From a plasmid: 46,053 nt of DNA. The notes below the pieces were generated by a model. It saw nothing but the letters and a program-made list of their open reading frames with translations, had not been told where the DNA came from and searched no databases. The DNA is taken from the sequence record NZ_CP037828.1; one strand, given 5' to 3'. This document shows, piece by piece, positions 31,175-42,338 of this stretch (the first letter of the stretch is position 1; every line of letters begins with the position of its first letter). The position numbers and the translations under genes are program-made.

Positions 31175-32080
31175 TTATTTCATCATTTTTTTGTATCCTT
31201 TTGCATTTGCAAAAACATGTTTATCTACATCACTCATGACTATTATGCCAGGTATATTCTTTTTAAATGCTTCACCTAACAATTTAGCACCTCCACCCAT
31301 AACGACAACAGCAGAAGTTGATATTGGGTAATTTAATTTCAATTCATTATATATTTGTTTAAATAATCCAACAGACGCATCTATATTTTTCTTTATATCT
31401 TGTTTTTCACCATTTAGGTAAAACCCTTTGTCTATGTAGTCTTGTATTTTTTCTCTTTTTATCTCAACTTTACCCAGAAATCTTTCATCCATTTCAAGAG
31501 ATTTTTTTATTGCATCATATATATTTATCGTTCCAACATTTACAGAATATGGATCAGTCGCTTTATTCCCTTGTACAAGCGCAATATCTGTTGTCTTTCC
31601 ACCAATATCAACTAAAACAACATCTCTTCCTGCAATTTGGTCAACTATGTCTTTTGCATAATATAAGTATCCTGTAACTCCCTCTGGAAACACTTGAACA
31701 GATCTTATTGTTATATCTCTTTTAGTAGTTTCATTTCCTTTTGCAAATTCAACATGATATTCTTTTCCTTGTAATTTTTCAATCAAATCTTTTCTTAATC
31801 CTCCAAATTGCTTCACTGGTAGACCTAATGCTAGATCAATAACTTCATCATCTGTATTTCTGCATATAGCCCCAAGTAAAAGTGGTAAGAAGTTTTCTTT
31901 CTCATATTTAACTATATTTATTTCCTCGTCACCTTCGCCTAAATAATATGTTTTATTACCTATTTTAATGCTATCTGAATCTGAACCAAAGTTTTTTACC
32001 TCTGTAACTTTACTTTCAAAAATATCATCTGTACTTGTTTTAACTGCATAATTTCCAATATCTATACCTAATTTACTCAT
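31175..32080 (-). CDS. parM: ParM/StbA-family actin-like plasmid segregation ATPase
   Basis: Phosphate-1 'LGIDIGNYAVK', phosphate-2 'LVDIGGKTTDIALV', and the 'VVMGGGA' motif. Confidence 0.7.
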   Translation of the reverse strand: MSKLGIDIGNYAVKTSTDDIFESKVTEVKNFGSDSDSIKIGNKTYYLGEGDEEINIVKYEKENFLPLLLGAICRNTDDEVIDLALGLPVKQFGGLRKDLIEKLQGKEYHVEFAKGNETTKRDITIRSVQVFPEGVTGYLYYAKDIVDQIAGRDVVLVDIGGKTTDIALVQGNKATDPYSVNVGTINIYDAIKKSLEMDERFLGKVEIKREKIQDYIDKGFYLNGEKQDIKKNIDASVGLFKQIYNELKLNYPISTSAVVVMGGGAKLLGEAFKKNIPGIIVMSDVDKHVFANAKGYKKMMK

Positions 32081-33072: not shown

Positions 33073-33807
33073 TTAAGAGTTTGCACTACAATAATCAGAA
33101 AGCTTGTTCCACTCACAATCAACCCCTATTATTTTAAGAATATCATTGACTTGGCTATTTAAATCTTTAATATCTGATTTAGACATTAAAGGATCTTTCA
33201 TTATTTCATTTAGAAAAATACTATCAATGATTAAACATACATTTTCTGATAAATATTCACGTTTTACTGAGATTACTGTTCCAACTGTACTTTCTTTTAG
33301 TGTCTTATATGCTACACTCAATATGCATGGTTCTAAATTAATTCCTTCTAGTACTGTTTCAAAGTAATATTTTATTCTTATATTTTCATTTCCAATAAAT
33401 ATTTCTTCATTGCTGCTTATCTTCTTTAATTTTCTCATTATGCCTAACATCTTAGCATTCACTTCATAATTTATTCCATATCTCTTTGATGCCAAACTCG
33501 ACATTAAGTCTCTTTCTAAATAAATTACCCACTGACCATTATAGGAAAATGATGTTTTAGCGATATCCATTTCTCCTTTTCCAGTAATATTAAATTTAGG
33601 CTCTAGTTTATTTATTAAGTAAATCTCATAAAAATCCATAGTATATTTATTATCTAATTCCATATACTCAAGTCTTAAATTCTTATTACACCAATTTTCT
33701 TTTTTATTACTTAAATGACTAGCGTGTCTATCACAGATATTCTCTGTTTTCCCAACGTATAAACATTCTTCCGTATCTTGATTAATATATTTATAAACAT
33801 AATACAT
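33073..33807 (-). CDS. GIY-YIG domain protein, paralog A
   Basis: 'YVYKYI...ECLYVGKTENI..RH..H' and 'YLINKLEPKFN' GIY-YIG core residues. Confidence 0.6.
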   Translation of the reverse strand: MYYVYKYINQDTEECLYVGKTENICDRHASHLSNKKENWCNKNLRLEYMELDNKYTMDFYEIYLINKLEPKFNITGKGEMDIAKTSFSYNGQWVIYLERDLMSSLASKRYGINYEVNAKMLGIMRKLKKISSNEEIFIGNENIRIKYYFETVLEGINLEPCILSVAYKTLKESTVGTVISVKREYLSENVCLIIDSIFLNEIMKDPLMSKSDIKDLNSQVNDILKIIGVDCEWNKLSDYCSANS

Positions 33808-33826: not shown

Positions 33827-34627
33827 TTAATTGTCATATTTACAGCCCTTATATATTTCAAATAATTCTTGCCATGTATATCCAACTTCTAGTATGTGAA
33901 AAATATCCTCTATTTGTTGGAAAATCTCAGTAATTTTATATTCAAATGTTGGCATTAATTCCATTAAATTGGCCAAAGATCCAATCCTAATCTCTAATGT
34001 TATATTTATAAGTATTTTTTTATTTGTTGCTGTATATTCTTTCCATCTGGGATAAACTGAAATCAAAGAACAACTTCCAAATCTTTCTAATGTTTCAAAA
34101 TCATATGATATCAAATTAATATCTAATTCATTCTCACAAAATTCTATATCCATATTTTCAAAGTTATATAGCACACTTAAAACATTATTTTCATATAACA
34201 TTTCAACCTTGGCATCTAACTTTTCAATTCTCTTTAAAAAATTAATAGATTTTTTACTTACTTCATATTTCATATCTATCTTTCTTTCTCTGAATCTTCT
34301 TTTTCCCTTTGTCTTTTCCTTAAAATCTTCTTCTGAATATGTACTCCAATCTTCTTCCTTGTAATCAAAAAAGATGTGTTCAGTATCCATATCACCTTTA
34401 CTTAGTTTATTAAATATTGGATTTAGTTCATTTATTAAATAAACTTCAAAAAAATCCATATTATATCTACGTGGAAGTTCAATATATTTTAATATTAATT
34501 CTTTAGTACACCAATCTTCTTCTTTATTACTCAAATGAGATGAATGCCTTGCATATATATCTTCTGTTTTTCCAACGTATAAACATTCTTCTGTAGCTGG
34601 ATCAATATATTTATAAACATAATACAT
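33827..34627 (-). CDS. GIY-YIG domain protein, paralog B
   Basis: Same N-terminal GIY-YIG domain. About 75 bp of near-identical DNA at the 5' ends of both genes. Confidence 0.6.
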   Translation of the reverse strand: MYYVYKYIDPATEECLYVGKTEDIYARHSSHLSNKEEDWCTKELILKYIELPRRYNMDFFEVYLINELNPIFNKLSKGDMDTEHIFFDYKEEDWSTYSEEDFKEKTKGKRRFRERKIDMKYEVSKKSINFLKRIEKLDAKVEMLYENNVLSVLYNFENMDIEFCENELDINLISYDFETLERFGSCSLISVYPRWKEYTATNKKILINITLEIRIGSLANLMELMPTFEYKITEIFQQIEDIFHILEVGYTWQELFEIYKGCKYDN

Positions 34628-34646: not shown

Positions 34647-35834
34647 TTATTTATAGTAATATCCTTCTTCATTTACTAGACCTTGATCAAATAAATTTCT
34701 CCTAACAGTTTCAAGTCTGACAGGATCTTTGCTATAATCAACTTCTCTTTCTTCTTTTTTAACATCTTCATCATCCCAATATTTATCTAATTCTTCTTTA
34801 AACTTTAAATCATCTTTTTGATGAATTATAACTTCACTTATTTTATTTGAAAGTGTTGATTTAAAAAAATCATAATTCTTTGTATTTATAATATCAGTAT
34901 TATCTCTTTCAAATGCTATAGCAATAGACTTATTAAAAGCATTCAGATAAACATCTTTCTTAAAATCAAACTCTTTAAAATCTTCTTTAAATAGTTTAAT
35001 CGTCCCTGTTGTAAAAATATTTTCATTTGGTATATAAAAACTAAAAGACACTTCATTGTCCTGCTTCTTTTTAGGTATATAATCTTCAACCAATATATCT
35101 TTATCAAAATATTTTCTAGGTTCATAATCTATCACAGAAAAAATTATTTCATCTATTTTTCTATTTTTTCTTTTTTCTTCTTTTATTGAAACAACCATGT
35201 TGCCTTTTTTATTTATTTCATTCATTGCTCTTTTTAGAACATTTTGTTTAAAATATTTATACTCTGGATATACATTATCTTTTAATTTCAAATAAAATCT
35301 TAATTCATCTAACTTATATTTTATCTCCACTTCCTTATTTTCTCTGCTCCATAGTCTAAATAAAGTGTATAACCTCTGAGTATATGCACCTCTAAAATTA
35401 AATAACACTGATAAATTAATAGCTGTATATCCATTTTTCTTTTTCTGCATTTTTACAAAATCAGTTATATGATTGTATAGAACTTCATGCATCATAATTG
35501 TATAAATTTGGTCTGTATGATCCAATTCATATGTATTAATTAAACCACTTCCAAAAGTTTTTAACTTGCCAGTTGTCTCTTCTATATAGTCAAATTCCAA
35601 AACACTTTGTTGAAACATGTTCAAAATTTCTTTTATATTTTTATGCTCATAATCATTATTGTTTTTCATAAATACTTTTAGTTCTTCTTTTGATATAGTT
35701 GTAACATAAGATGAATTTTGCTGTTTCTGAGCATTAAAAAGTATTTTGTAAAATAATTTATTTTCCACATTTGTAAAATCATATTTACTTTTTATTAAAT
35801 TATTTGGTTGCATTAAAATTTCTTTTTTTTCCAA
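34647..35834 (-). CDS. Rep_3-family plasmid/theta replication initiator
   Basis: N-terminal 'QPNNLIKSKYDFTNVENKLFYKILFNAQ' typical of the Rep_3 family. Iterons lie directly upstream. Confidence 0.65.
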   Translation of the reverse strand: MEKKEILMQPNNLIKSKYDFTNVENKLFYKILFNAQKQQNSSYVTTISKEELKVFMKNNNDYEHKNIKEILNMFQQSVLEFDYIEETTGKLKTFGSGLINTYELDHTDQIYTIMMHEVLYNHITDFVKMQKKKNGYTAINLSVLFNFRGAYTQRLYTLFRLWSRENKEVEIKYKLDELRFYLKLKDNVYPEYKYFKQNVLKRAMNEINKKGNMVVSIKEEKRKNRKIDEIIFSVIDYEPRKYFDKDILVEDYIPKKKQDNEVSFSFYIPNENIFTTGTIKLFKEDFKEFDFKKDVYLNAFNKSIAIAFERDNTDIINTKNYDFFKSTLSNKISEVIIHQKDDLKFKEELDKYWDDEDVKKEEREVDYSKDPVRLETVRRNLFDQGLVNEEGYYYK

Positions 35835-35897: not shown

Positions 35898-36041
35898 CGC
35901 TCACCTTTGACCCTTAAAATGATGACCTTTGACCCTTAAAATGATGACCTTTGACCCTTAAAATGATGACCTTTCGACCCTTAAAATGATGACCTTTGAC
36001 CCTTAAAATGATGACCTTTGACCCTTAAAATGATGACCTTT
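35898..36041. repeat. Iteron array: six perfect 22-bp direct repeats GACCCTTAAAATGATGACCTTT plus a partial seventh copy (candidate replication origin)
   Basis: Read directly. Copies at 35909, 35931, 35953, 35976, 35998 and 36020. Confidence 0.9.
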
Positions 36042-36253: not shown

Positions 36254-36943
36254 ATGCTTGAAAACAGAAAACAAATTCAGAAAGAAATTTACTTACCAAT
36301 AGCAACATATTGTTTAAAAGATAAGCAATATTATATAAAAGAATATGGAGCACTATTAATAAAGAGTGCTGAAAATAGTGACATTTTTAATACCCATAAA
36401 AATAGAATTTTGTATAAGAATAAACTTGATATTCAAGAAATAGCAAATGAACTGAATGTAAATAAAGCAACAATCCAAAGAAATATAAAAAAACTAGAGA
36501 AGTTAGATTTTAAAATTCTAAAAATAGAAAATACCCTAAATGGAATTGTATATTGTTTGCCGTCAGAAAATAATATTGATTTAAACAAATTTGCATTGAT
36601 AAATTATGAAATGCTTAAAAAAATGGTCAATAAATTTAAATCAAATACAATAAAAGTATATTTTTTACTTAAAACAATCACTACAGAAACTAATTTTAAA
36701 CCTGCAACTAATAGTTTTATAGCAGAAAATATAGGACTAAGTTCTAAAAGTAAAAATAATTTAGATATCATAACTTCTTCTGTTAAAACTTTAGAAGAAA
36801 ATAAATACATTGAAACAAAAAAAGTAAATGTATATGAATATGACAAAGAAAAACTTAGAGAAGTTCCAAAAATAAGAAAAGTTTATCGGATTTGTAATTT
36901 TGATGAGTGGAAAAAGGAAATTGATAAAAATAAAGTTTATTAA
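36254..36943 (+). CDS. HTH-containing hypothetical protein
   Basis: HTH 'IQEIANELNVNKATIQRNIKKLEKL'. Transcribed divergently from the iteron array. Confidence 0.4.
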   Translation: MLENRKQIQKEIYLPIATYCLKDKQYYIKEYGALLIKSAENSDIFNTHKNRILYKNKLDIQEIANELNVNKATIQRNIKKLEKLDFKILKIENTLNGIVYCLPSENNIDLNKFALINYEMLKKMVNKFKSNTIKVYFLLKTITTETNFKPATNSFIAENIGLSSKSKNNLDIITSSVKTLEENKYIETKKVNVYEYDKEKLREVPKIRKVYRICNFDEWKKEIDKNKVY

Positions 36944-37091
36944 ATATAGCTTAAAAGCATTTAAAGGCTTGTCTGACGTGTTTTAATTACAAACTTGATG
37001 TTATTTACCTAAAAAGATACAAATTTGCTTAAAAATGGAAATAGAAGGTCAAATATATAGATAGAGAACCAAATAAAATTATATTGGCTCT

Positions 37092-37487
37092 CTATTTATC
37101 TTCTTCCCAATCCTCAATAAACTTTTCTAAACTTTTTAATTTATTTTCAGACACTTCTTCATCATCATGCAGAGCACTTATAAAACTTTCAAAAGAATTT
37201 TTGTGAAAGAAACTAAAGAAACTTTTAGTCTCAACTTTTAAATATTCTTCTTTTTCTATTAATGCTTTATAATATGTAAATCTATCTTTCTTAACAACTT
37301 CTAAAAATCCTCTACCAACTAACCTTCTTAAAAAAGTTAACATAGTTGATTTTTTCCATTCATATTTTTCACCTAATGTTTTTAAAATTTCAGTAGATGC
37401 AACTTCTTCATCTTCACTATCCCAAATGTACATCATTACCAAAAGTTCTGATTCTGGAATCTTTTTTATCTTCATAAAGCACACCAC
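37092..37487 (-). CDS. BlaI/MecI/CopY-family transcriptional repressor (orphan; no BlaR1/MecR1 partner)
   Basis: Winged-helix 'LSdsELLVMMYIW...STMLTFLRRLVGRGFLEVVKKDRFTYYKALI' matches the penicillinase-repressor family. Confidence 0.6.
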   Translation of the reverse strand: MVCFMKIKKIPESELLVMMYIWDSEDEEVASTEILKTLGEKYEWKKSTMLTFLRRLVGRGFLEVVKKDRFTYYKALIEKEEYLKVETKSFFSFFHKNSFESFISALHDDEEVSENKLKSLEKFIEDWEEDK

Positions 37488-37685
37488 CTTTTCAAAAGTA
37501 TAACTAAAATACTATAACAATAGAGTTAACTATACAATACTAAATGTCTAAAAATGTTATTCCAATTTTTACCAATTAATTTTTCTTTAAAAAAAATTTA
37601 AGCAGGAGTAAAAAAAATAAAAAATTATCAAAATTTATCAATATAAAAAGAAATATAAGTATAAATTTTTCTCTTTGTATATTGA

Positions 37686-37787
37686 TTGTATACAATTCTA
37701 TTTTTGTAAAATTAAATTTTACAAAATAATCAAAAATGGTAAATTTTGACATTTGCCTAATGTCAAATTAGGTGTTACAATTGTAAC
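37686..37787. promoter_or_regulatory. Cluster of TACA/TGTA dyad palindromes (candidate cop/bla-box operators)
   Basis: TTGTATACAA at 37686-37695. TTTGTAAAATTAAATTTTACAAA at 37703-37725. TTGACATTtgcctAATGTCAA at 37746-37766. GTTACAATTGTAAC at 37774-37787. Confidence 0.5.
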
Positions 37788-38204
37788 ATAAAGAAGATAT
37801 ATATCGAAATAATACATATAAAATACATATAAAACTACGTACGTAAAATATTTTTAAAAATAATCAAAAATCTTAATTTTCAATATTGAATACAATTAAA
37901 TTTTCAAACTCATCTAGGGCATGACATACAAAAGCAAAAAACATTAATTTAGTATCTGATAAAAATTTAAAAATTATAAAAGGGGGAAGTCTGTTATTTT
38001 TCAGAAGCAATGTAACTGTAAAAATATAAATCAGAATATTTTGAAAATATGGGGGATTCTATGGGAGAATTAAAACTTGAATCAAAAATGAATTGCACTA
38101 AAAATAAGAAAAAAGTTGCTATATCTATACATCAAATGAAAAAAATTTCTAAAAAAGATTATGTTTTTTTAACAGATTGCATAGAAACATTTTATATGAA
38201 AATA

Positions 38205-38240
38205 AAAGAGGTTTGATAAATTTTCAAACCTCTTTTTATT
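38205..38240. terminator. Bidirectional terminator hairpin
   Basis: 11-bp perfect stem AAGAGGTTTGA/TCAAACCTCTT followed by TTTATT. Confidence 0.6.
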
Positions 38241-38241
38241 G

Positions 38242-38610
38242 CTATTTGTTTTTCTTTTGCAATAATTCTATCATTTTCAAGATAGCATCTCTATCTTCTT
38301 GTTCTAATTCATAAAGTTTGTTAGTTATTTCTTTTACATCATCATCAATTTCTAAGTCAGCTAAACAATCTTTATAAATTTCACCTTTTCCACTTCTTAG
38401 CCATTCCTCATTTACTTCAAATTCTCTGCATATGTCGTTAATACTTCTTTCTGTCAAAACTCTTTTTCCTTTTTCCAATAAAGAAATTTGATCTTGTGAT
38501 AAGAAAATTCTTTCCCCAAACGCTCTCTGCGAAAGTCTTTCAAGAGTTCTTAACTCATTTAATCTTTTTCCAATTTCTTTAGCTTTTAATTTTTTTGAAA
38601 CTTCTGCCAT
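38242..38610 (-). CDS. XRE-family HTH repressor-like regulator (module A)
   Basis: HTH 'LSQRAFGERIFLSQDQISLLEKGKR'. Paralog of the 39244 ORF. Confidence 0.7.
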   Translation of the reverse strand: MAEVSKKLKAKEIGKRLNELRTLERLSQRAFGERIFLSQDQISLLEKGKRVLTERSINDICREFEVNEEWLRSGKGEIYKDCLADLEIDDDVKEITNKLYELEQEDRDAILKMIELLQKKNK

Positions 38611-38650
38611 TTTTACAATCCTCCTCTGTCATTACTATACTATAAAAACA

Positions 38651-38763
38651 CGACTTTGTCATTAAAAAAATAATTATAACGACAAAATCATGATAAAAAT
38701 AAAAAAGATATTGATTTTTAACGACAAAGTAGTTATACTTAAAATAAGTTGAACGACAAAGTA
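38651..38763. promoter_or_regulatory. Operator/promoter region of module A: four CGACAAAGT half-sites (one inverted) overlapping a TTGATT-17-TATACT promoter
   Basis: Sites at 38651 (inverted), 38681, 38722 and 38754. Confidence 0.5.
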
Positions 38764-38782
38764 AGTGTAGGAGGATAAAAAA

Positions 38783-38943
38783 TGATTTGTTCAAACAAAG
38801 AGAAAGTAGAAACAGCTTTGATGATAGATTATTTAAAAAAAAATGAACCAACTGAATGGAGAACTATAGAAACCATAATCTCCAGTACATACGCATTAAG
38901 TAATTTCAAAAAAGAAAATAAAGACATTATGAATCAGAAATAA
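38783..38943 (+). CDS. Small hypothetical protein (53 aa), first + strand gene of module A
   Basis: AGGAGGAT RBS. Not in the ORF track because it is under 60 aa. Confidence 0.3.
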
Positions 38944-38965
38944 CAACAGTAAATACTTAAGGGGA

Positions 38966-39682
38966 GTGATAAGCTTGAAAATTTCAGATTTTAATAAAGA
39001 TCATATAGGTAAAGCGATTCAACTACAAGAGACAAGATTTAATGTCATAACGGATTGCATCATCACAGAAGTAGAAGTAGGCGAAATTGTTGTAATGTTT
39101 TACATGCAAGAAAATGATGACACAGGATACAAGGCTATAACATGGGAAGATTTAAAAAATTATATCATAAATGGCAAAGGGAAGAGGCATTATAGGATTT
39201 TTGTGGCTTGGGGGATTGTTATAAAAAGAGGTATAACCTCTTTTTATAACTCTTCATTTTTGATTTTTAGATATGCATTGTCAATTATTTTTTCTATCGC
39301 TTCTCTATCTTCATCTTCCAATGCAAATATCTTTTTTATCATAGTTTTTATTTCTTCACTAGTTTCTAAATCTTCTGTAATGTCAACGAACATTTCACCT
39401 TCTCCATGCAATAACCATTGTTCATTTACATTAAATTCTCTACAAATATCATTTATGGTTCTTTGTGGTATCTTTCTATGCCCTGTTTCATATGAAGAGA
39501 TTTGCGAAAGAGACAAACCTAATTTTTTGCCAAAATCTTTTTGTTTTAATTTCTTTGAAAGCCTTATATCTTTAAGTCGTTGTCTTCTTTCATTATCTTC
39601 TAAGTTTTGTTTTTCCATAACGTCACCCCTTATGAGTATAATTATAACATTTAAAAATACGCTTTGCAATTACAAATTTTAA
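38966..39682 (+). CDS. Small protein paralogous to the 39952 ORF; the reading frame runs on antisense to the module B XRE gene, so the real C-terminus is uncertain
   Basis: The first ~65 aa match 39952..40158. The C-terminus 'NYIINGKGKRHYRIFVAWG' resembles the end of the 40187 ORF. The remainder is low-complexity. Confidence 0.35.
   Translation: MISLKISDFNKDHIGKAIQLQETRFNVITDCIITEVEVGEIVVMFYMQENDDTGYKAITWEDLKNYIINGKGKRHYRIFVAWGIVIKRGITSFYNSSFLIFRYALSIIFSIASLSSSSNANIFFIIVFISSLVSKSSVMSTNISPSPCNNHCSFTLNSLQISFMVLCGIFLCPVSYEEICERDKPNFLPKSFCFNFFESLISLSRCLLSLSSKFCFSITSPLMSIIITFKNTLCNYKF
39244..39618 (-). CDS. XRE-family HTH repressor-like regulator (module B); start trimmed to 'MEKQN'
   Basis: HTH 'LKQKDFGKKLGLSLSQISSYETGHRK'. 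AAGGGGTGA RBS. Confidence 0.7.
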   Translation of the reverse strand: MEKQNLEDNERRQRLKDIRLSKKLKQKDFGKKLGLSLSQISSYETGHRKIPQRTINDICREFNVNEQWLLHGEGEMFVDITEDLETSEEIKTMIKKIFALEDEDREAIEKIIDNAYLKIKNEEL

Positions 39683-39747
39683 AAAAATACGCAAAATAAA
39701 ATAAAAACTCAAAGCGTATTGACATAGTATGCAAAGCGTAATATAAT
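39657..39747. promoter_or_regulatory. Operator/promoter region of module B: GCAAAGCGT/ACGCTTTGC sites and a TTGACA-17-TATAAT promoter
   Basis: Sites at 39659 (inverted), 39712 and 39733. -35 at 39718 and -10 at 39741. Confidence 0.5.
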
Positions 39748-39771
39748 TGAATCACAGGAAGGAGTGTTAGA

Positions 39772-39948
39772 ATGAATCAAGAAAAAGAAAAAGCGAATGA
39801 TTTGTTATTAAAACTTGAACTTCTTAAAAAGATAAACCCACAAGAGTTTGGATACATAAGCGGAAGAATAGACGTAAATATTGAGAAGTTAAAACAAGAA
39901 ACCGAAAGAAATAAAAGCAAAAAAATAAGATATAGGAAGGGGGCTTAA
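39772..39948 (+). CDS. Small hypothetical protein (58 aa)
   Basis: AGGAAGGAG RBS. Positional analogue of the 38783 ORF. Confidence 0.3.
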   Translation: MNQEKEKANDLLLKLELLKKINPQEFGYISGRIDVNIEKLKQETERNKSKKIRYRKGA

Positions 39949-39951
39949 AAA

Positions 39952-40158
39952 TTGACTTTTAATAAAAATCAAATAGGAACAGCAGTTCAATTACAAGATA
40001 TAAGGTTTGATACAAAAGTTGATTGCATCATTACAAAAGTAGAAAAGAATGAAATACTAGTCATGTATTATGAAAAAGAAACAGAGGAAATAGCATATAA
40101 AACTTTGACTAAAGAGGATCTAATACTTGATGATTACAAACTTAAGTTATTATATTAA
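39952..40158 (+). CDS. Small protein, paralog of the N-terminus of the 38966 ORF
   Basis: 'IGTAVQLQDIRFDTKVDCIITKVE' aligns with 'IGKAIQLQETRFNVITDCIITEVE'. Confidence 0.45.
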   Translation: MTFNKNQIGTAVQLQDIRFDTKVDCIITKVEKNEILVMYYEKETEEIAYKTLTKEDLILDDYKLKLLY

Positions 40159-40186
40159 AAAGTAATTTCGGAAGGGAGGTGATTAA

Positions 40187-40909
40187 ATGGATCTTTTGAA
40201 AGATGCAAGAAAAAAAGAATGGTTTTGGCTGGAAAATGATTTGGTGGATAGAGAGGATCTAAGTGTTTACGAAAAAATGGCTTATATGGTAATGGCAAGA
40301 TATTCAGATGATGAAAGTTCTTGTTTCCCAAGTTTATCATTAATATCCAAGAAAATGGGATGCGGAATAACGACTGTCAAAAAAACAATAAATAGTTTAG
40401 AAGAAAAAAATTTAATAATAAAAGTACATCGCAAGGTTAAAAACAAAAAGGAAAATGATACAAATGTTTATTACATTATGAGTTTGAAAGGTAAGTCGTC
40501 TGGCGACATAGGTCATGAGGCGACAGACGGTAGGTCGCCATACGACCAACAGGTAGGTCGCGAGGCGACTAGTAAAAAGACTTATAATAAAAAGACTTAT
40601 ATAAAAAGTAATACCACTCCACAAAATGAACCTAAAACTGATTATTTAGACCTATCATTTTTAGATTTAGATATAGAAAAAGTAAAACTAACTAAAGATG
40701 AATATGACAAACTTATAAGCAAGTTTGGGAAGAAATACATACATGATAAAATTGTTAGTTTAGAAAACTATATCATAAATGGTAAAGGGAGTAGGTATAA
40801 GAGCCACTATAGGGCTTTGCTGACTTGGGGGAATGGAGATGCTAGTAAAGGTATAGTACCAGAAGTTACAAAGACTAAGAATCCTCTTAGTGGATTTAAA
40901 GAACTTTAA
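40187..40909 (+). CDS. Replisome organizer / DnaD-like replication protein with an internal GC-rich repeat island
   Basis: Winged-helix 'FPSLSLISKKMGCGITTVKKTINSLEEKNLI'. Lies upstream of the helicase gene. Confidence 0.5.
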   Translation: MDLLKDARKKEWFWLENDLVDREDLSVYEKMAYMVMARYSDDESSCFPSLSLISKKMGCGITTVKKTINSLEEKNLIIKVHRKVKNKKENDTNVYYIMSLKGKSSGDIGHEATDGRSPYDQQVGREATSKKTYNKKTYIKSNTTPQNEPKTDYLDLSFLDLDIEKVKLTKDEYDKLISKFGKKYIHDKIVSLENYIINGKGSRYKSHYRALLTWGNGDASKGIVPEVTKTKNPLSGFKEL

Positions 40910-40936
40910 AAACTAAATAGTAAGGAGGTAGATAGG

Positions 40937-41122
40937 ATGAATGAAAAAGAAGAGACTGTTTATTTGAATAGTTCTAATGTGAAGTTATTCTTAGGCGTTA
41001 GGGATATTAAGGAATTTGAGGAATTGATAGAAAATGTCAATGAGCGAATTTGTCAACTCCAAGAATCGATTAATAAACTTGCCCAATTTAATATTGAGTT
41101 CGATATTAAGTCAGATATTTAG
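40937..41122 (+). CDS. Hypothetical small protein
   Basis: AAGGAGGT RBS. Confidence 0.3.
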   Translation: MNEKEETVYLNSSNVKLFLGVRDIKEFEELIENVNERICQLQESINKLAQFNIEFDIKSDI

Positions 41123-41147
41123 TTAAGTATAAATTAGGAGGTTGCCT

Positions 41148-41366
41148 ATGAAAGATGAAAAGTTAGAACTTACTGAAAAAGATTTACACTGTATTGCAAG
41201 ACATTTACAAAATGAAGTTATGGAGATGGTGTTTAGAGGGAATATAGAAGCCCCTACATCATGCGAAGTTTGCGATTACTTGCAAGAATGCAAGGACTAT
41301 TTCACCCATATAGACACTTTTATAAAATTAAGTGAAATGACAGGTGTAGATATTTTTACTAAATAA
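41148..41366 (+). CDS. Small HC..H/CxxC protein, copy 1
   Basis: 'LHCIARH...TSCEVCDYLQEC'. AGGAGG RBS. Paralog of the 41760 ORF. Confidence 0.45.
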   Translation: MKDEKLELTEKDLHCIARHLQNEVMEMVFRGNIEAPTSCEVCDYLQECKDYFTHIDTFIKLSEMTGVDIFTK

Positions 41367-41384
41367 ATTTAGTAAATTAAAATT

Positions 41385-41603
41385 TTAGTATTGTAATTGA
41401 CGTGCTTTTTTAAAAAGAGGACAGTTGCTATTAGCAGTCATTATTTGAATTTTGCAAATGTAATTTTTATTACATTCGCATTCTAAAAGTTTTGATCCAG
41501 TGAATCCAGGAAAAGTTTTATATTCACCAGAAAATTCAACTTTATCGTCAATAAGAGAGCATTTTTCTCTTAAGGTTTTAATTTTGCACATATTCATCAC
41601 CAC
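41385..41603 (-). CDS. Cys-rich small protein, copy 1 (convergent partner)
   Basis: Six Cys. Shared 'EY..PG.TGSKL...C...IC....CP.FKK' pattern with the 42013 ORF. Confidence 0.4.
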   Translation of the reverse strand: MVMNMCKIKTLREKCSLIDDKVEFSGEYKTFPGFTGSKLLECECNKNYICKIQIMTANSNCPLFKKARQLQY

Positions 41604-41759
41604 CCTATAATTGATTTGAACATACTGTCAATATGCTCCAATTAATTATAACATGCAAATTATCATGGTGTAGAATTAAAGCATAGGTCAATTAAATTTA
41701 GTTATAAAATCAATGAAACAGATAAAGAATTAAATGTTAAATAAATTAGGGGGTTGTTC

Positions 41760-42020
41760 ATGAAAGAGGAAAAGTTAGAACTTACTGAAAAAGAATTGCA
41801 TTGTATTGCAAGACATTTGCAAAATGAAGTTATGGAGATGGTGTTTAGAGGGAATAGAGAAGCCCCCACATCATGTGAAGTTTGCGATTACCTGCAAGAA
41901 TGTGAGGGAGATTTTACCTGTATGTATCATTCTTTTACTAAATTAAGCAAAATAACAGGTGTAAAAGTGACTGCATTTAAGTATTGTTTTCCAGATGAAA
42001 ATCCCAAAGCTACTATCTAA
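41760..42020 (+). CDS. Small HC..H/CxxC protein, copy 2
   Basis: First 50 aa nearly identical to copy 1. Confidence 0.45.
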   Translation: MKEEKLELTEKELHCIARHLQNEVMEMVFRGNREAPTSCEVCDYLQECEGDFTCMYHSFTKLSKITGVKVTAFKYCFPDENPKATI

Positions 42021-42201
42021 GAAGTTTTTTTAGAATAGGACATTCTTCATTAGAAGAAGAGTCGCAAATATGACTTCCATCACATCTAGTTGACATTAAC
42101 TTAGATCCAAAAGTACCTGGAGGAGCTGAATATTCGCAAGTAAGAGAAATGGTTTCGTTTATTACAGGACATTCTTTGCTTATAACTCGATATTGGCTCA
42201 T
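42013..42201 (-). CDS. Cys-rich small protein, copy 2 (convergent partner)
   Basis: Paralog of the 41385 ORF. Conserved promoter block upstream. Confidence 0.4.
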   Translation of the reverse strand: MSQYRVISKECPVINETISLTCEYSAPPGTFGSKLMSTRCDGSHICDSSSNEECPILKKLLR

Positions 42202-42338
42202 ACTCTCACCACCTTTCTAATTAATTTAAACATATTGGAAGTATGTTTAAATTAATTATAGCATGTAAATTATCATGGTGTAGAATAGTTTCAAATCAAA
42301 AGAAGCAACTAAATAGTTAAAGACAGGAGGTATGCTAA

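Follow-up and report, generated by a model that had tools for sequence, protein, structure and literature searches.

The window described here, a 46,053-nucleotide (nt) stretch of plasmid sequence (record NZ_CP037828.1), is a myovirus-like phage-plasmid of Clostridioides difficile, approximately 46 kb in size. Its early region carries two immunity modules in tandem, A and B, each with a small XRE-type repressor (XRE-A and XRE-B) that faces its own control region. We read the pair as stacked heteroimmune cassettes: B would be the switch of the element, and A would retain an orphan repressor giving immunity to A-type genomes. A recombinational origin of the tandem and the orphaned state of module A are, taken alone, very probable; the reading as a whole is rated lower, as probable but far from secure, because the immunity function of XRE-A is one that we infer.

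Both repressor genes lie on the minus strand and each faces a divergent promoter region, as the first-pass annotation had proposed (the coordinates of all features are collected in Table 1). In Pfam searches XRE-A matches the helix-turn-helix (HTH) family HTH_19 (40.4 bits, cut-off 30.2), and XRE-B matches both HTH_19 (51.4 bits) and HTH_3 (49.1 bits). Both proteins match phrog_8 (transcriptional regulator), and their PDB matches include 434 repressor and PezA. A Peptidase_S24 domain is absent from both (Pfam, E ≤ 0.1; proteins of 122–124 amino acids [aa]), which places them outside the self-cleaving LexA/CI class. The two repressors are 47% identical to each other over 101 aa (E = 2e-32; 43–47% across comparisons), whereas XRE-A is 81% identical to gp38 of phage phiCD6356, without a single difference in the recognition-helix stretch FLSQDQISLLEKGKR, and XRE-B is 77% identical to gp54 of phage phiSemix9P1. 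By this measure XRE-A is a second repressor of foreign immunity type, standing alongside the resident switch.

The control regions of the two modules contain different repeated words. In module A, ACGACAAAGT occurs exactly at 38721 and 38753; the copy at 38679 and an inverted copy at 38653–38662 each carry a single mismatch. These had been described as three direct copies and one inverted; the four sites are real, but only two of the direct copies are exact, and the inverted copy is also imperfect. With up to one mismatch allowed, the window contains 7 matches to this word (1.5 expected), a number reached by 0 of 100 shuffled sequences. The fourth operator-like site of module A sits just 5' of the ribosome-binding site (RBS) of A1, the first rightward gene. 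In module B, GCAAAGCGTA occurs exactly at 39658 (minus strand) and 39731 (plus strand) and with one mismatch at 39709, and the pattern TACGC-N3-GC is matched 4 times against 0.23 expected. The B sites recognized previously hold, although one copy is mismatched and the positions given as 39712 and 39733 were off by 2–3 nt (39709 and 39730/39731). The last two B sites overlap the -35 and fill the spacer of a TTGACA-17-TATAAT promoter, which is perfect, as had been claimed for it.

That the two modules use different operator words is borne out in three ways: neither word is found in the control region of the other module, each being confined to its own intergenic region; the words are enriched; and they are conserved in relatives. 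In phiCD6356 the four A sites are unchanged amid flanking bases that have diverged. In phiSemix9P1 the flanks have likewise diverged, and the B sites preserve their half-sites TACGC and GCA even at a site with AAA in place of TTT as its central triplet, which suggests that the B site is a 13-bp pseudo-palindrome with an unread centre. Exact copies of a 22-nt core of the A promoter/operator were found in nine IMG/VR contigs, among them single-module plasmids and two that are phiCD6356-like; plausible targets for XRE-A thus exist.

The difference in affinity extends from the repressors to the surrounding DNA. A megablast search of 37000–41500 against the phage collection returned nothing; phiSemix9P1, phiCD6356 and HGP05 were recovered only with sensitive blastn, and further relatives (given L numbers here) were obtained by exact look-up of the XRE-A and XRE-B proteins and by scans of IMG/VR and GTDB genomes. 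Positions 38068–38922 (ORF0, XRE-A, control region and A1) are collinear with phiCD6356 at 78% DNA identity, and 39219–40613 (terminator, XRE-B, control region, B1, B2 and the start of RepB) are collinear with phiSemix9P1 at 72%. Each of these two phages has one module. Had a single switch been duplicated in tandem in situ and its repressor and operators then diverged, this would account for the common gene order of the modules, their period of approximately 1 kb and the homology of the XRE pair and the ORF2 pair. Such an origin is nevertheless contradicted, and we give it very little credence: the closest phage is a different one for each module and is far more similar to it than the adjacent module is, A1 has no sequence relationship to B1, the joins at both junctions are illegitimate, and the relic of a replication initiator (Rep) gene between the modules is shared at 98% with another type of tandem, C-B (see below). 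Of the two origins offered in the first-pass annotation, a duplicated and diversified switch thus falls, and capture of a second immunity region is supported by the different phage affinities, the unrelated A1 and B1, the scars and the existence of single-module relatives on the same backbone.

Two scars, J1 and J2, mark the downstream end of module A. The second rightward gene of this module had been taken for an open reading frame (ORF) of approximately 70–90 aa; it is instead a remnant, ORF2 codons 1–58 (A2'), fused in frame to a piece of a Rep C-terminus. From the TTG at 38977 the reading frame stays open until 39682, passing through the ORF2 codons, the Rep piece, the terminator and then XRE-B in antisense. 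The Rep piece is homologous to RepB (40187–40909; protein E = 5e-8, with clear DNA homology and a 9-nt indel) and is 98% identical to the 3' end of RepC', the nearly full-length Rep gene of the C-B tandems. An intact allele of the module A ORF2, ending ...YEDLENGDCKLKLLN, is found in the single-module relative L034. J1 (39150/39151) falls in the 9-nt TTTAGAAAA, which is common to this intact ORF2 and to Rep and so indicates a microhomology deletion between the two genes within one ancestral element. J2 (approximately 39210) joins the Rep relic to the terminator of the B cassette.

A long ORF at 38966–39682 was considered as a real 238-aa gene and rejected, as it is composed of the ORF2 and Rep fragments, the terminator and XRE-B antisense. 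The plus strand from 39244 to 39682 is free of stops across the whole of XRE-B antisense, which is mildly unusual (1.2% of synonymous XRE-B recodings leave the frame open). Gene callers predict a 360–375-aa Rep' ORF running through XRE-B antisense in the C-B tandems. The antisense frame is not open in phiSemix9P1, and its openness here may be due to chance.

The modules had been presented as equivalent, but only B has kept its connection to the replication operon. XRE-B is oriented divergently to B1-B2-RepB-...-DnaB, an arrangement of repressor opposite early operon that is typical of an immunity module, and the complete B cassette occupies the position of the sole switch in single-module relatives. 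Module A is cut down to its repressor, control region and A1. The same arrangement is found for A in single-module relatives only; in the window, the A operon is cut at 39150 and closed by a terminator. That hairpin (39218–39250) ends the XRE-B transcript and should also end the A1-A2' transcript. A search of 36900–41200 against Rfam (E ≤ 1) returned no RNA family.

From this organization we infer that XRE-B is the master switch. Dimers of XRE-B would occupy the four B operators; they would keep the strong rightward promoter, from which the lytic replication operon is read, repressed and would also control the promoter of their own gene. XRE-A would still be made from its own autoregulated promoter and would bind A operators only. 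Since the A promoter would now drive only A1 and a stop-less relic ending at the terminator, XRE-A would no longer decide entry of the element into the lytic cycle. Rather, it would repress incoming A-type genomes, namely single-module sibling plasmids and phiCD6356-like phages, whose operators are identical, and the outcome for the carrier would be a one-sided, broadened superinfection immunity. The tandem element is predicted to be immune to the single-module A element, yet able to grow in cells carrying single-module A.

The search of related phages that the first-pass annotation had recommended did yield single-module forms, some of them on the backbone of the window. In single-module A elements (L004, L006, L007 and others, including DSM 1296 plasmid CP011969), XRE-A and A1 precede an ORF2 that is intact and a Rep of 243 aa. 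As XRE-A would directly control ORF2-Rep in these elements, cassette A appears to be a working switch elsewhere. The crossover from A-type to B-type sequence in this form is located at TTTTAATAAA, at the start of ORF2, and we considered whether the form is simply a deletion derivative of the A-B tandem produced by a crossover at that site. Its Rep allele, however, is just ~69% identical to RepB, which implies further mosaicism. Other single modules are of the D, E and phiCD6356-like types.

Tandems are likewise found in several combinations. In C-B tandems (L012, L015 and L016) the upstream module consists of a third repressor, with 25% identity to A or B, together with C1, C2 and the nearly full-length RepC', whose own sequence ends at J2 as in A-B but whose frame continues through XRE-B; positions 39151–40927 of the window are 98% identical to these elements, with the match beginning exactly at J1. 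D-B tandems (L026, L028, L037 and plasmid pCd11_3) have a fourth repressor, and both J1 and J2 are common to them and A-B. The A-B, C-B and D-B forms bear the same scar. A fourth tandem, L038 (plasmid OX246692), was formed independently: a hybrid repressor, D-type operators and a TTGACT-17-TATAAT promoter are followed by a complete F-type module, and there is no ORF1 or ORF2. These four forms arose independently at least twice, and in every one of them the upstream repressor ORF has remained intact along with its operators, whereas ORF2/Rep is truncated or absent. As judged from these comparisons, the tandem is the product of recombination between heteroimmune relatives. The order of events follows from the C-B form, in which the upstream Rep is nearly intact and J2 is the same: first, an early region was joined illegitimately, at a point near the end of its Rep gene, to an early region of B type; the ORF2-Rep deletion came second, and third the upstream repressor cassette was exchanged (A, C or D). 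Literature searches turned up no earlier account of tandem immunity modules in elements of C. difficile.

These relatives also define the specificities involved. Six HTH types (A–F) were distinguished, each with its own repeated word in the adjacent region: ACGACAAAGT for A, TACGCTTTGCA for B, GTGAAAnTTTCAC for C, ATATCTCA for D, ATGTATTGnCAATACAT for F and a 15-nt inverted repeat for E. The hybrid repressor of L038 (741–1073) combines a D-type HTH with a C-terminal 46 aa identical to XRE-A, and it adjoins D-type words. The repeated sites thus overlap divergent promoters and co-vary with HTH type across six types and one natural hybrid, as expected of operators. The conserved linker INDIC...WL..G.GEI, at which the two parts of the hybrid are joined, appears to be a point of recombination between the DNA-binding and C-terminal parts of the repressors.

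The recurrence of tandem forms with intact repressors is the main support for function over accident. The tandem could instead be a neutral scar, a recent accident of mosaic recombination that hitch-hikes with a successful plasmid clone and in which module A is inert or irrelevant and will decay. Such an accident would fit a family that is highly mosaic, a tandem region that is nearly invariant among copies without evident purifying selection, and an A2' that is an obvious gene relic lacking a stop codon. We consider it unlikely, given that the tandem recurs with three upstream cassettes and once more via independent junctions, always with repressor and operators intact and neighbours truncated or lost, and that it is the commoner form among the XRE-A contigs read.

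Several observations weigh against the reading proposed here. Sampled copies of the A-B tandem hardly differ from one another, and the 2.4-kb stretch 37900–40300 shows 99.9% identity across six complete circular plasmids (48.6 kb). When signs of purifying selection were sought in module A, none was detectable, since the tandem copies are almost identical; their conservation is therefore uninformative on selection, and a young neutral scar is plausible. The rightward A promoter and A1 have been kept, though pure immunity needs neither. With no S24 domain and no adjacent ImmA-like protease found by Pfam search, the repressors have no evident route of inactivation. Their related C-terminal regions might allow XRE-A and XRE-B to heterodimerise. 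Finally, the terminator between the modules has only 4 G-C pairs, and read-through into XRE-B antisense is possible.

Read-through of this kind is central to a different model, a coupled two-tier switch in which derepression of module A feeds module B, either through antisense or convergent transcription over XRE-B or through an action of A1 on XRE-B. The A promoter does aim at the 3' end of XRE-B, the frame from A2' is open across all of XRE-B (with the low frequency among recodings given above), and in L038 the TTGACT-17-TATAAT promoter of the orphan module points at the following repressor gene, from which no terminator-like site separates it. In the window, however, the modules are separated by a terminator with a 15-bp perfect stem, A1 accompanies XRE-A in single-module relatives that have no module B, and the open antisense frame is not kept in phiSemix9P1. 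We regard coupling as improbable. An extension of the orphan-repressor reading meets with similar scepticism on our part. Here the slot 5' of the resident switch would be a selected site of 'immunity collection', in which orphans (A, C, D and the D/A hybrid) are repeatedly captured and swapped as weapons against sibling elements, and the rightward promoter of the orphan would wire it into the resident switch by convergent or antisense transcription over the resident repressor gene; an invading homoimmune genome that titrates the orphan repressor would then induce the resident element, making the slot an invasion sensor. This is put forward as a speculation that is probably wrong in at least some part.

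The small plus-strand genes had been called paralogous between the modules. This is correct for the ORF2 pair: A2' and B2, each a member of phrog_1564, show 55% identity across 55 aa (E = 1e-21). It does not apply to A1 and B1, which fall into different PHROG families and have no detectable sequence similarity (E = 9.4). AlphaFold2 models of A1 and B1 are nonetheless confident two-helix hairpins (predicted local distance difference test scores of 95 and 92) with the turn at residues 21–23, and a short motif common to both, LKKxxPxE[W/F], is located at the turn in the translations. A1 and B1 may be structural analogues or very remote relatives. Neither has an HTH or other DNA-binding match in Pfam, so the first early gene is not Cro-like by this test; a Foldseek search of the models against PDB gave nothing with E < 3, and a search for B1 homologues gave just three near-identical C. 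difficile proteins, too few for a useful alignment.

ORF0, the left part of the exchangeable A cassette, co-occurs with XRE-A and has a homologue upstream of phiCD6356 gp38. Every cassette has a small plus-strand ORF0 of its own, convergent with the repressor. Across immunity types, only the first ~9 codons of ORF0 and its upstream region are conserved, marking a mosaic boundary. The phiSemix9P1 ORF0 (phi53; L001 3152–3286) is paralogous to phi55/B1, the first early gene (E = 8e-9 and 4e-8), and a weaker similarity of the same kind is seen for the D type (E = 0.001). This paralogy hints at older rounds of module stacking and decay. At the other end of the region, the repeats inside RepB are possibly a lytic origin embedded in the initiator gene; their equivalent would have been lost from module A in the ORF2-Rep deletion.

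The arrangement can be compared with several known systems. As in lambdoid immunity regions, an XRE-fold repressor is divergent from an early operon, three to four operators overlap both promoters, and specificities (A–F) are exchanged as cassettes at conserved boundaries. The elements described here differ in having no S24 autocleavage domain, in having a predicted two-helix hairpin rather than an HTH Cro as first early gene product, and in having two tandem cassettes, one of which is disconnected from the early operon. The Xre protein of Bacillus subtilis PBSX is a small protease-less repressor with four sites in the intergenic region between xre and the early operon. It resembles the repressors of the window in size (~113–124 aa) and in its four divergent intergenic sites, and the host element has PBSX-like tail genes; this likeness is one at the level of a generic HTH, and PBSX has one module where the window has two. 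SinR/SinI pairs an XRE HTH protein having a short helical C-terminal region with a helical partner of ~55 aa, but this is an analogy only, as the gene arrangement differs and there is no Pfam match to SinI or to the SinR multimerisation domain here. P1 (immC/immI/immT), which is also a phage-plasmid, and P22 (immC/immI) have multipartite immunity. They too carry more than one immunity determinant on one temperate element, but these determinants are mechanistically distinct parts of one circuit (antirepressor control, antisense RNA) and not two homologous cassettes of differing specificity. Mycobacteriophage Mcgavigan has acquired a Bxb1-like repressor that was shown to be dispensable for lysogeny and needed for heterotypic superinfection immunity only (PMC12700041). 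This second repressor of foreign immunity type in a temperate phage is an experimental precedent for the role proposed for XRE-A. The repressor family and host are unrelated, however, and in the present case a whole divergent control region came along, was placed directly 5' of the resident switch and has kept datable scars.

The wider context is that of a phage-plasmid: virion genes (tail sheath etc.) occur alongside genes for plasmid replication and partition, and the replicon is circular and extrachromosomal. Bases 1–25000 are 91% identical to phage HGP05 (over 77% of that stretch) and 89% identical to phiSemix9P1; the window also encodes a DnaB helicase and PBSX-like (Xkd-type) tail genes. 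HGP05 and phiSemix9P1 make up 'cluster G' (PMC12671070), and the ~46-kb class of plasmid-or-phage elements, together with the extrachromosomal state of phiSemix9P1, has been reviewed (PMC6127314). Near-identical complete circular plasmids span 45–48.6 kb. The exact XRE-A protein is listed in 1532 blocks of public assemblies and the exact XRE-B in 1508. The 22-bp repeats beside the Rep3 gene resemble a plasmid origin of the iteron type. Next to Rep3 lies a pair of adjacent genes that match the GIY-YIG nuclease domain weakly; some relatives differ at this position, L006 having a 116-aa GIY-YIG gene. The BlaI-type repressor and the phrog_3396 HTH protein are further regulators located between the plasmid replication region and the immunity modules. 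3' of RepB, the early region contains an internal tandem duplication with a period of ~614 bp (41122–41348 versus 41736–41963; 41583–41676 versus 42193–42286), with duplicated 74-aa and 88-aa ORFs (41142–41366 and 41754–42020) that are 75% identical (E = 3e-30) and have a CxxC-like motif.

Table 1. Coordinates of features in and around the tandem immunity modules (positions in the window; dG, folding free energy in kcal/mol).
Feature	Position	Strand	Details
ParM-like ATPase	31175-32080		
GIY-YIG nuclease domain (weak matches), two genes	33073-33807, 33827-34627	-	adjacent; adjoin Rep3 gene
Rep3 initiator	34647-35834	-	
Iteron array (putative)	35903-36041		22-bp unit ACCTTTGACCCTTAAAATGATG, 6.3 tandem copies, 98% matches; adjoins Rep3 gene
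HTH protein	36254-36943	+	phrog_3396
BlaI/MecI/CopY-family repressor	37092-37487	-	Penicillinase_R, E 9e-25
ORF0	38049-38216	+	55 aa, phrog_7633; convergent with XRE-A
Terminator between ORF0 and XRE-A	38204-38236	both	bidirectional hairpin; dG -16.4/-15.9, z -5.6/-6.6
XRE-A repressor	38242-38610	-	122 aa; N-terminal HTH_19, ~45-aa helical C-terminal region
Module A control region	38611-38781		171 nt
A operator-like 13-mers starting ACGAC	38650-38662, 38679-38691, 38721-38733, 38753-38765	+	
A leftward promoter	38662-38634	-	ATGACA-17-TATAGT; -35 inside first A operator
A rightward promoter	38711-38739	+	TTGATT-17-TATACT; third A operator in spacer
A1	38782-38943	+	53 aa, phrog_7500; predicted two-helix hairpin
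A2'	38977-39150	+	TTG start; first 58 codons of ORF2 (phrog_1564), cut at J1
Rep relic	39151-39210	+	NYIINGKGKRHYRIFVAWG; 60 nt in frame, C-terminus of replication-initiator gene; ends at J2, stop-less
Terminator at left edge of B cassette	39218-39250	both	bidirectional, 15-bp perfect stem; dG -21.2/-18.1, z -4.7/-7.7
XRE-B repressor	39244-39618	-	124 aa from ATG with RBS; HTH_19/HTH_3, helical C-terminal region
Module B control region	39619-39771		153 nt
B operator words, direct	39658-39668, 39688-39698	+	TACGCTTTGCA, TACGCAAAATA; TACGC-type
B operator words, inverted	39709-39718, 39730-39740		TCAAAGCGTA, TGCAAAGCGTA
B leftward promoter	39669-39641	-	TTGCAA-17-TG-TATAAT; -35 overlapped by first B operator
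B rightward promoter	39719-39747	+	TTGACA-17-TATAAT; perfect, 12/12
B1	39772-39948	+	58 aa, phrog_6272; predicted two-helix hairpin
B2	39952-40158	+	intact 68-aa ORF2, phrog_1564
RepB	40187-40909	+	240-aa phage replication initiator, HTH_36, phrog_270; first large gene of module B early operon
Repeats inside RepB	40509-40608		23-bp unit TAGGTCGCGAGGCGACAAACGG 2.7x, then 15-bp unit 2.5x

Among sequenced C. difficile, phage-plasmids of this 45–48-kb kind are very common. Should the orphan repressor act in the way suggested here, a strain carrying the tandem would be immune to two phage immunity types at once, and the tandem element would have a one-sided advantage over its single-module siblings. 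This would bear on host range in phage therapy, on competition between plasmids and prophages and on the evolution of immunity specificities. With six HTH types, six words and an HTH/C-terminal hybrid, the family also offers a natural experiment on the recognition codes of small XRE repressors.

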